A program made the position numbers and the translations under genes. Source: a virus (Duplodnaviria; Caudoviricetes). Taken from it: 64,000 nt of DNA. The notes beneath the pieces were generated by a model. That model had not been told where the DNA came from. It made no database searches and saw nothing but the letters and a program-made list of their open reading frames with translations. Every line of letters starts with the position of its first letter. The first letter of the stretch is position 1. Shown here piece by piece: positions 12,620-13,174 of the stretch. The stretch lies in the IMG/VR virus record IMGVR_UViG_3300033757_000296, positions 32,001 to 96,000 of that record, one strand, 5' to 3'.

Positions 12620-12740
12620 AAAGTGGACGGAGGGGGCTATAATGAAATAAACGAGTTAGGGATCCTCCTATCCCTAGTGGCGATGTGGCACCTAAAATCT
12701 CTTGCAATGCAGGATTTTAGATACCATAAACAGGAGGTGC
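12620..12740 (+). ncRNA. candidate cis-regulatory 5' leader RNA with two hairpins and an anti-SD loop
   Basis: TAGGGAT-[CCTCCT]-ATCCCTA (12657-12676); CTAAAATC...GATTTTAG (12692-12720). The loop is complementary to SD AGGAGG (12732-12737) and to upstream GGAGG (12629-12633). Confidence 0.5.
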
Positions 12741-12745
12741 TTAGT

Positions 12746-13174
12746 ATTAAGCGCATTTTATTATTACTACTCCTTTTCATAACAATAACTCCGACTTATG
12801 CGATTGGCGGATATTTTATCCCAGGCGGATATTATGGAGGGGAAGCGGGATACTATTACTGGGAAGATTATTGTCCCATGTGTGGACATTACGATTGCCT
12901 TCTCGTAAACCCCAAAGGAACTTATGAAGGTGAAATAACTTGTTCTATATGTGATGCAGATTATGATGGATGTACGGGAGCAGAGAAACATGGAAGTGGC
13001 GCTAGAGCGTGGTTGAGTCCTTATGAGGAACCAGAACCCGTTCAAGCACAAGAAGTAGTAGAGAATGTTACAATAGAACCCCCAACAAACACGACAATAA
13101 CAAGCGATTGGGGAGTTATAACTGTTGATAACAAACACTTAGAATTGCTACAAACGAGCAAAATTATATATTAA
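12746..13174 (+). CDS. secreted Cys-rich (Zn-ribbon-like) protein; probable ATT start
   Basis: AGGAGGTG SD, then in-frame ATT giving signal peptide (M)KRILLLLLLFITITPTYA; domain YCPMC...EGEITCSICDADY. Confidence 0.65.
   Translation: MKRILLLLLLFITITPTYAIGGYFIPGGYYGGEAGYYYWEDYCPMCGHYDCLLVNPKGTYEGEITCSICDADYDGCTGAEKHGSGARAWLSPYEEPEPVQAQEVVENVTIEPPTNTTITSDWGVITVDNKHLELLQTSKIIY

Follow-up and report, generated by a model that had tools for sequence, protein, structure and literature searches.

The leader RNA described here lies in front of the gene for a secreted cysteine-rich protein in a virus of the Caudoviricetes (IMG/VR record IMGVR_UViG_3300033757_000296). The window, i.e. the whole stretch of DNA which was analysed, comprises 64,000 nucleotides (nt), positions 32,001 to 96,000 of that record, and coordinates given without a lineage label refer to it. 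Positions 12597-12745 appear to be the 5' leader of a messenger RNA which has 12746-13174 as its main gene. Together with its relatives this leader forms, as judged by alignment, an RNA family without a match in Rfam, which is found in viruses and chromosomes of Methanobacteriaceae in about 20 lineages. It probably works as a translational switch in which the Shine-Dalgarno (SD) sequence of the gene is sequestered, which is coupled to a short upstream open reading frame (uORF) and which precedes a weak AUU start codon. Comparison of the homologous sequences shows that the AUU codon, the uORF, the position of an anti-SD element, and a GUGGC motif are conserved, that a hairpin termed P2 covaries, and that the leader is exclusively linked to one gene family. 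Formation of the helices in vivo and translation of the uORF are inferred, as are the direction and the trigger of the regulation proposed below.

All parts of the leader in the window are on the plus strand. The SD of the uORF (SD1, GGAGG, 12629-12633) is located 8 nt before ATG 12642, which opens a mini-uORF of the sequence ATG AAA TAA (M-K-stop, 12642-12650). It is followed by the hairpin H1 (12657-12676), a perfect 7-bp stem of TAGGGAT (12657-63) and ATCCCTA (12670-76) with the anti-SD CCTCCT as its loop (12664-69). The motif AGUGGC-GAU-GUGGCA (12676-12690), found to be invariant in the alignment of the lineages, leads to the hairpin P2 (12692-12720), which was defined by covariance models and compensatory changes and has 9 bp in its lower stem, a bulged CU, and UGC-AAU-GCA (12703-11) as its apex. 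The arms of P2 are CTAAAATC(T) at 12692-12700 and (G)GATTTTAG at 12712-20, also written CTAAAATCT and GGATTTTAG. In predicted folds GUGG 12685-88 is paired with CCAU (12724-12727), its 3' partner in a helix termed P1. The SD of the main gene (SD2, AGGAGGUGC, 12732-12740, with AGGAGG at 12732-37) is complementary over 6 bp to CCUCCU 12664-69, and its part AGGUGC 12735-40 to GCACCU 12688-93. The AUU start codon (12746-12748), assigned by homologue comparison, stands 8 nt past AGGAGG. A first-pass annotation of this DNA had pointed out the 7-bp hairpin with the CCUCCU loop, a second hairpin, the upstream GGAGG, the AGGAGG, and the in-frame ATT, and all of these are present as described.

When the 150-nt leader was shuffled by dinucleotides, a perfect 7-bp hairpin arose in 3.4% of the cases and an anti-SD pentamer in a hairpin loop in none of 5000 shuffles, and a 7-bp hairpin with an anti-SD loop is unique within the 64-kb window on both strands. 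The folding energy of the leader in the window is unremarkable (z = -0.73). As stability alone is not unusual, the evidence was taken from homologue comparison and not from folding energy. A cmscan of 12000-13400 on both strands with 4227 Rfam models at E values up to 10 yielded no relevant family and two snoRNA-like chance matches outside the leader.

Homologues of the 142 amino acid product were collected from IMG/VR, GTDB genomes, JGI/ENA metagenomes, a set of 5.8 billion proteins, and cultured viruses; the lineages are labelled with L numbers. ATT, mostly continued as ATT AAG, was found 6-9 nt past a strong SD in all 20 lineage representatives tested, which agrees with the proposal of ATT 12746 as start codon in the first-pass annotation. 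With ATT making up 35% of the internal isoleucine codons of the homologous genes, the probability that 20 representatives all carry ATT is about 1e-9, assuming that they are independent. The stretch from the preceding in-frame stop to ATT is free of ATG, GTG, and TTG in at least 11 lineages, and in L161 and L178 a stop codon immediately precedes it. The next canonical start downstream is 4-94 codons into the gene, and with it the signal peptide would be lost in part or completely. The spacing from SD2 to the start in the window agrees with that of other genes of the same virus. A member of the family is also found in a cultured virus, Methanobacterium virus Drs3, as ORF18 (L182:1345-1809; MH674343 12415-12879), where the context GGGAGGTGCTTAAT ATT GAG is nearly that of the window. 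The annotated GTG start of Drs3 ORF18 is situated inside its own SD, and the codon at SD spacing is ATT. A uORF and a GC hairpin of 10 bp with CCUCCC are present in the leader of ORF18, which is devoid of the GUGGC/P2 motif. Other codons occur in L131 (TTG) and in L137 and L163 (ATG), and in Methanobacterium virus PhiF3, where the gene starts with an ATG located more upstream, the homologous isoleucine codon is ATC.

Other starts were considered and rejected. The first-pass annotation had named an upstream start at 12596 as an observation which would refute its reading; the GTG at this position has no SD and would add 50 codons that are not conserved in homologues. GTG 12737 and ATG 12683 lack a usable SD, and in-frame conservation of them is absent among the homologues. 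The ATG in the apex GCAAUGC, a potential hidden start, has no SD and shares the frame of the gene in just two cases, the window (12707) and L173; in L178 and L179 the apex reads GCAAAGC with the loop AAA, so that an AUG within the apex is dispensable. On the sequences compared, AUU is the only feasible and phylogenetically fixed initiation codon at SD spacing. Gene calls of the family in databases (clusters P0001-P0102) range from 73 to 247 amino acids, with N-termini truncated at an internal ATG or TTG or extended into the leader. The family is thus systematically mis-annotated because of its ATT start, and the signal peptide is often lost or lengthened in annotations due to these mis-called starts.

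The second constant feature is the uORF. An SD followed after 3-9 nt by ATG occurs within -170 to -50 in 20 of 21 lineage representatives, with 1.4 expected from shuffles. Two-codon uORFs like the one in the window are also found in L173 (M-P-stop) and L174 (M-N-stop), and those of the other lineages have 3-37 codons. The encoded peptides, 2-37 codons long, are unrelated between the lineages compared, and no conserved (stalling) leader peptide was found among them. In many lineages the SD of the uORF is of the GGUGAU type. The uORF runs through the anti-SD in L003, L171, L175, and L180, and in most leaders its stop is 30-95 nt before AUU. A 37-codon uORF is seen in L148 (L148:2374-2495), with its stop TGA within the SD (GGATGTGATC), 4 nt before ATT and in another frame, an arrangement which would fit termination-reinitiation coupling.

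Three classes of leaders were distinguished. Class 1 comprises the window, L003, L162, L167, L171, L173-L180, L184, and L185 and has the order uORF with SD and ATG, often a short GC hairpin H1, CUCC or CCUC, AGUGGC, 0-7 nt, GUGGCA, P2, a CCA-containing spacer, SD, and AUU. Its P2 combines a variable lower stem with a small 5' bulge and the apex (U/A)GC-AAU-GC(A/U). With the window and L162 as its only input sequences, a covariance model retrieved seven more lineages, and the covariance models R1 and R2 gave P2 in 9 lineages and later in 7 more. Pairing is kept in 94% of the P2 cells; the corresponding values are 62% for shuffled columns and 29-43% for slid registers. Compensatory changes are present in 10 of 12 pairs, all of this being counted on an alignment fitted to the model, which favours the structure. 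The long second hairpin of the first-pass annotation is thereby supported as a real RNA structure, and the covariation and conservation in homologues by which that annotation proposed to check its leader are found in the compensatory changes of P2 and in an anti-SD which covaries with the SD. When the 9-sequence model was run against 151 Methanobacteriaceae genomes, 5 matches in 4 genomes were obtained, all directly 5' of a homologue with SD and ATT. A covariance-model match in genome G001 (L172) is inside a coding sequence and was discarded as chance. In the genome searches the element stands before one gene family only.

The sequence GUGGC...GUGGC is invariant across 9 aligned lineages and was seen in further ones. 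It is present in group A too, which consists of copies in metagenome-assembled genomes (MAGs) assigned to Methanobacterium and retains AGUGGCGAUUGUGGCA. At the P2 position of group A a stem (CCGACAAA/UUUGUCGG) encloses a branched 43-nt insert, with covariation within the group by eye. Class 2 (L001, L157, L161, and L149) has one copy of the motif and no P2: AGUGGCA is directly followed by (C/A)CUCC, which is paired with the SD in the minimum free energy (MFE) fold. Leaders with ATT homologues in L126-L130 and L140-L147 (group A) and in L178 are in cellular neighbourhoods with no recognisable provirus, next to an AP-endonuclease-2 family, PIN-ATPase, or radical SAM gene; in L130 a 1-nt difference joins the leader frame to the main ORF. 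Because of these copies in cellular, non-lysis contexts the leader is seen to travel with the gene and not with a lysis cassette. Its placement at the head of a lysis operon in the first-pass annotation describes the virus in the window and does not carry over to the family.

In 10 of 12 class 1 leaders the GUGGC motif is preceded, within 17 nt, by CUCC or CCUC, with a background of 2-10%. MFE folds of whole leaders contain anti-SD:SD2 and GUGG:CCA pairing enclosing P2 in L173, L177, L178, L180, L171, L174, L176, and L167, and in class 2 the anti-SD is likewise paired with SD2 in L157, L161, and L149. The unpaired probability of SD2 is 0.01-0.26 in 10 of these 11 lineages and 0.58 in L167. CCA triplets 3' of P2 are present in L003, L167, L176, L177, L178, L184, and L185. 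Duplexes of anti-SD/GUGG with CCA/SD from the same leader have a mean of -10.2 kcal/mol, non-cognate ones of -8.6 kcal/mol (permutation p = 0.0014), so that the complementarity is lineage-specific and goes beyond the shared GGAG core. A compensatory change of C to A and G to U is seen in L149, with CAACUCC and GGAGUUG, as compared to L157, with CACCUC and GAGGUG. The leader thus has complementarity to its own SD, and the comparison of lineages shows an anti-SD that is conserved and covaries with the SD, as expected of SD sequestration. The earlier proposal of an anti-SD able to close the SD of the gene gains from the recurrence of both the CUCC/CCUC element and the pairing across lineages. Its display in a hairpin loop, also proposed, is confined to the window and L173 (homologous hairpin GGGA-CCUCUU-UCCC) and is not found in other lineages; short GC-rich hairpins of other sequence were seen by eye at the H1 position in at least 13 lineages.

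Fold states of the window leader were computed for 12597-12760. The MFE state, in which SD1 is paired with CCUCC, has -37.7 kcal/mol, the state with H1 formed -35.6 kcal/mol, and the state with SD2 closed by CCUCCU:AGGAGG pairing -34.4 kcal/mol. The unpaired probability in the free ensemble is 0.06 for SD1, which is closed, and 0.43 for SD2, which is about half open. Blocking of 12625-12662, as by a ribosome on SD1 and the uORF, reduces the unpaired probability of SD2 from 0.43 to 0.02, and the anti-SD shifts to SD2. The two-state switch which had been proposed for this leader is compatible with three folds spanning 3.3 kcal/mol, and uORF occupancy comes in as an additional input. The upstream GGAGG does pair with CCUCC in the MFE fold of the window, as its suggested role of a competitor demands; it is also the SD of the conserved uORF, which the first-pass annotation had overlooked, and with GGUGAU-type SDs in many lineages such pairing is not general.

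In the mechanism favoured here the anti-SD:SD2 and GUGG:CCA helices would close a long irregular stem around P2 and hide the ribosome-binding site. A start codon as poor as AUU would make the output strongly dependent on the accessibility of SD2, and expression would be tied to its openness for this reason. Ribosomes on the uORF would alter the choice of partner by the anti-SD. For the window the model predicts that the free leader favours SD1:anti-SD with SD2 about half open, and that a ribosome on SD1 and the uORF releases the anti-SD, upon which SD2 closes. A GGUGAU-type SD of the uORF cannot take up the anti-SD, and in such leaders SD2 is predicted to be closed by default. Translation of the uORF would open SD2 in the four lineages named above, in which the uORF extends across the anti-SD.

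Several points weigh against this mechanism. All leader structures are predicted ones, and the direction of control may vary between lineages. The folding energies of the homologue leaders are mostly not significant, at z > -1.5, the P2 counts come from the model-fitted alignment, and in L162 and L175 no CUCC element is found. The best anti-SD duplex was not significant against shuffled leaders for the window (p = 0.15) and most lineages; this plain duplex test was replaced by the position-specific test and by the comparison of cognate with non-cognate duplexes. SD2 is predicted to be open in group A leaders. The stop of the 2-codon uORFs is 12-20 nt 5' of the anti-SD, just beyond a terminating ribosome, and direct steric unmasking is therefore inapplicable to them. 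As to initiation at AUU, a review on archaeal initiation names only AUG, GUG, and UUG as start codons (PMC7531240), and L162 and L171 have GTT in place of ATT, preceded at a distance of 2 nt by an ATG in another frame. In these divergent homologues (L162:2405-2430 and L171:515-540, with GGAGGTTTTAATGTTAA) the well-spaced ATG opens a non-conserved ORF of about 20 codons.

The GUGGC motif and the apex of P2 are not accounted for by pairing alone and leave room for a trans-acting binder. It is conceivable, if rather unlikely, that GUGGC(N)GUGGCA and P2 form a sensor domain for a metabolite or a protein, the occupancy of which would set the anti-SD:SD2 helix; if true, this would be the first riboswitch-like RNA class specific to methanogens with pseudomurein walls and their viruses, gating an AUU-initiated gene. 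As a protein-binding translational operator, by analogy to those of phage MS2 coat protein, T4 RegA, and the ribosomal-protein leaders, GUGGC(N)GUGGCA and the P2 apex would bind a viral or host RNA-binding protein which stabilises or opens anti-SD:SD2, with the uORF being secondary. Invariance is concentrated in the apical stem-loop and in GUGGC(N)GUGGCA (some of which may be paired with CCA) and the stems vary, which would suit such an operator; the tandem GUGGC repeats would suit a dimeric binder, and the element is confined to the 5' side of one gene family. No candidate protein was identified, however, class 2 leaders make do with one GUGGC and no P2, and host-chromosome copies have no viral genes in the flanks examined, so that a virus-encoded binder would not be general; altogether the operator is an unlikely explanation. 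The first-pass annotation had thought of a riboswitch. In such a reading GUGGC and P2 would be the aptamer for a metabolite or ion and the anti-SD:SD2 helix the expression platform. This is quite improbable in spite of the covarying P2 stem, the invariant nucleotides in the joining motif and apical loop, and a basal helix which sequesters the SD. The leader has no Rfam match even at E values up to 10, and there is no sign of a ligand. One simple hairpin and a short motif make up the core, with neither a multi-helix junction nor a predicted pseudoknot, and the architecture differs by class, P2 being replaced by the 43-nt branched insert in group A and absent in class 2. In addition the gene codes for a secreted protein of a structural type, for which a link to a metabolite is not evident, and the conserved uORF already supplies an input.

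The remaining readings fare worse. The leader might be decaying coding sequence, a former zinc-ribbon ORF or N-terminal extension, with AUU and a strong SD giving constitutive low expression. The motif region of group A does read C-x-x-C-G-S-K-N-P-I-V-F-S-G-D-C-G in one frame, with synonymous TGT/TGC changes, and the codons just 5' of ATT resemble (M)-E-S-D-L in some lineages, where L137 has an ATG served by an SD and L184 an in-frame ATG at the same spot with no SD of its own. A Pfam zinc ribbon was not found in that frame, though, the frames are inconsistent even inside group A, and motif, compensated hairpin, uORF, and anti-SD persist between proteins of 30-60% identity, which neutral relics would not do; such a relic is accordingly a highly improbable source of the leader. 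An operator at the DNA level or hairpins acting in transcriptional attenuation could be invoked for the direct GTGGC repeats and the palindromes, one of which (12586-12604) is near the inferred transcription start. The compensatory changes in P2 keep pairing and not sequence, which points to a single-stranded nucleic acid structure, the hairpins are not followed by a T-tract, and the complementarity includes the SD, all of which makes a transcriptional element very hard to credit. In the case of recoding, ribosomes would initiate at the AUG of the uORF and enter the main frame through frameshifting or through a long bypass like that of T4 gene 60, and AUU would not be an initiation codon. The last sense codon of the uORF indeed matches a codon adjacent to ATT in the window (AAA; AAA 12728 or AAG 12749), L001 (AAA/AAG), L157 (AAC/AAC), and L162 (GGC/GGT). 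The presumptive take-off site has a stop and a hairpin behind it, and the presumptive landing site an SD-like element before it. L003, group A, L161, and L149 lack such a matching codon, however, the uORFs are conserved neither in length nor in peptide, and the uORF of L148 ends 4 nt before ATT in another frame. A bypass of the gene 60 type was rejected on these grounds, with matches in 4 lineages and failure in at least 4 others, and recoding in general is barely conceivable.

SD sequestration coupled to a uORF has parallels in known systems. The leader is like ermC-type attenuation and the polycistronic unfolding coupling of phage MS2 in that a short upstream ORF bears an SD, an anti-SD hides the downstream SD, and the position of the ribosome picks the helix. 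It is unlike them in its archaeal host, its AUU start, and its GUGGC motif and P2 apex, which have no counterpart there; furthermore its peptides are unconserved and as short as 2 codons, which makes a stalling peptide unlikely. The bacterial infC gene for initiation factor 3 (IF3) also has a phylogenetically conserved AUU start followed by a Lys codon, and is controlled via discrimination of IF3 against this start; archaea have aIF1 and not IF3. The common AUU and Lys codon implies selection for a weak, modulable start, whereas the product here is secreted and has no link to an initiation factor, and control would be by SD accessibility. In the lambda holin gene S the sdi stem-loop and dual start are a case of 5' RNA structure tuning initiation. 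The likeness is that the gene which opens a viral lysis cassette has an RNA structure at its 5' end, which here too would tune the choice or efficiency of initiation; in contrast to lambda S a conserved in-frame pair of starts is absent and chromosomal copies occur outside lysis cassettes. With the SD-sequestering platforms of the preQ1 and SAM-II riboswitches the leader shares covarying stems, invariant unpaired nucleotides, and a regulatory helix containing the SD, but its core is much simpler, varies by class, and has no Rfam match. For archaea, translation of an upstream ORF is reported to promote downstream initiation by termination-reinitiation (Huber et al. 2019, PMC6728339; PMC10666635), and by the title of PMC10666635 this coupling requires overlaps or very short gaps. 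The uORF of L148 with its stop 4 nt before ATT is alike, and the 30-95 nt gap of most leaders is unlike such coupling.

A published description of the leader element was not found in the literature. What is new is a family of leader RNAs in archaea and their viruses in which the start is fixed as AUU; control by an SD-sequestering leader with a leader ORF is itself already known in bacteria. Translational control by a structured leader, a uORF, and a non-canonical start is scarcely documented in archaea, and none was found for archaeal viruses. With an AUU fixed in about 20 lineages and coupled to a uORF, an anti-SD, and a covarying hairpin, the family provides a compact testable case. Drs3 ORF18 on Methanobacterium formicicum offers a cultured virus-host pair with a family member, and genetic tools exist for Methanothermobacter (PMC8609365).

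The product of the main gene (12746-13174, plus strand) was assigned by homologue and sequence analysis as a secreted cysteine-rich protein of 142 amino acids with a signal peptide (IKRILLLLLLFITITPTYA) followed by a CPxC...CxxC domain. Its AlphaFold model is beta-rich with a predicted local distance difference test score (pLDDT) of 84, and a fold search with the product gave just weak, non-significant Rieske-ferredoxin-like matches (E of 0.04 or worse, poor root mean square deviation). The same cysteine-rich domain is found in a 563 amino acid virion protein of the window (47127-48818, minus strand; 42% identity over 64 amino acids, E = 5e-13) and in large putative surface proteins of Methanobrevibacter MAGs.

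A DNA search of a phage collection with 11000-16000 yielded no matches. A scan of IMG/VR with the 14-base pattern AGTGGCNATGTGGCA returned more than 100 unrelated chance matches, the sole relevant one being the already known L003 contig, and this pattern is too unspecific for a homologue search. In L162 (2200-2330) and L171 (340-415) the leader starts right after a sequence resembling a tRNA 3' end (T-arm-like GGTTCAAATCC, by eye), which suggests co-transcription or integration beside tRNA genes. Upstream of the leader in the window a candidate archaeal transcription factor B recognition element and TATA box (CGAAAAGC TTAAATAC, 12556-12572, plus strand) may serve as promoter, and transcription would start at about 12596-12600. 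A second TATA-like 14-mer at 12534-47 has an identical copy at 61068-81 on the minus strand of the window. The perfect 8-bp palindrome at the presumed transcript start (AGTACACA-ttg-TGTGTACT, 12586-12604, plus strand) has a direct repeat of TATGTA after it and may be an operator site or form a hairpin at the 5' end. The neighbouring genes are viral and of the Methanobacteriales type. Genes for a Dam methylase and an HNH endonuclease are located on the 5' side, and the 3' side carries a 125 amino acid ORF without family matches, which the first-pass annotation had taken for a putative holin, and a peptidase carrying both a PMBR repeat and a C39-like domain.

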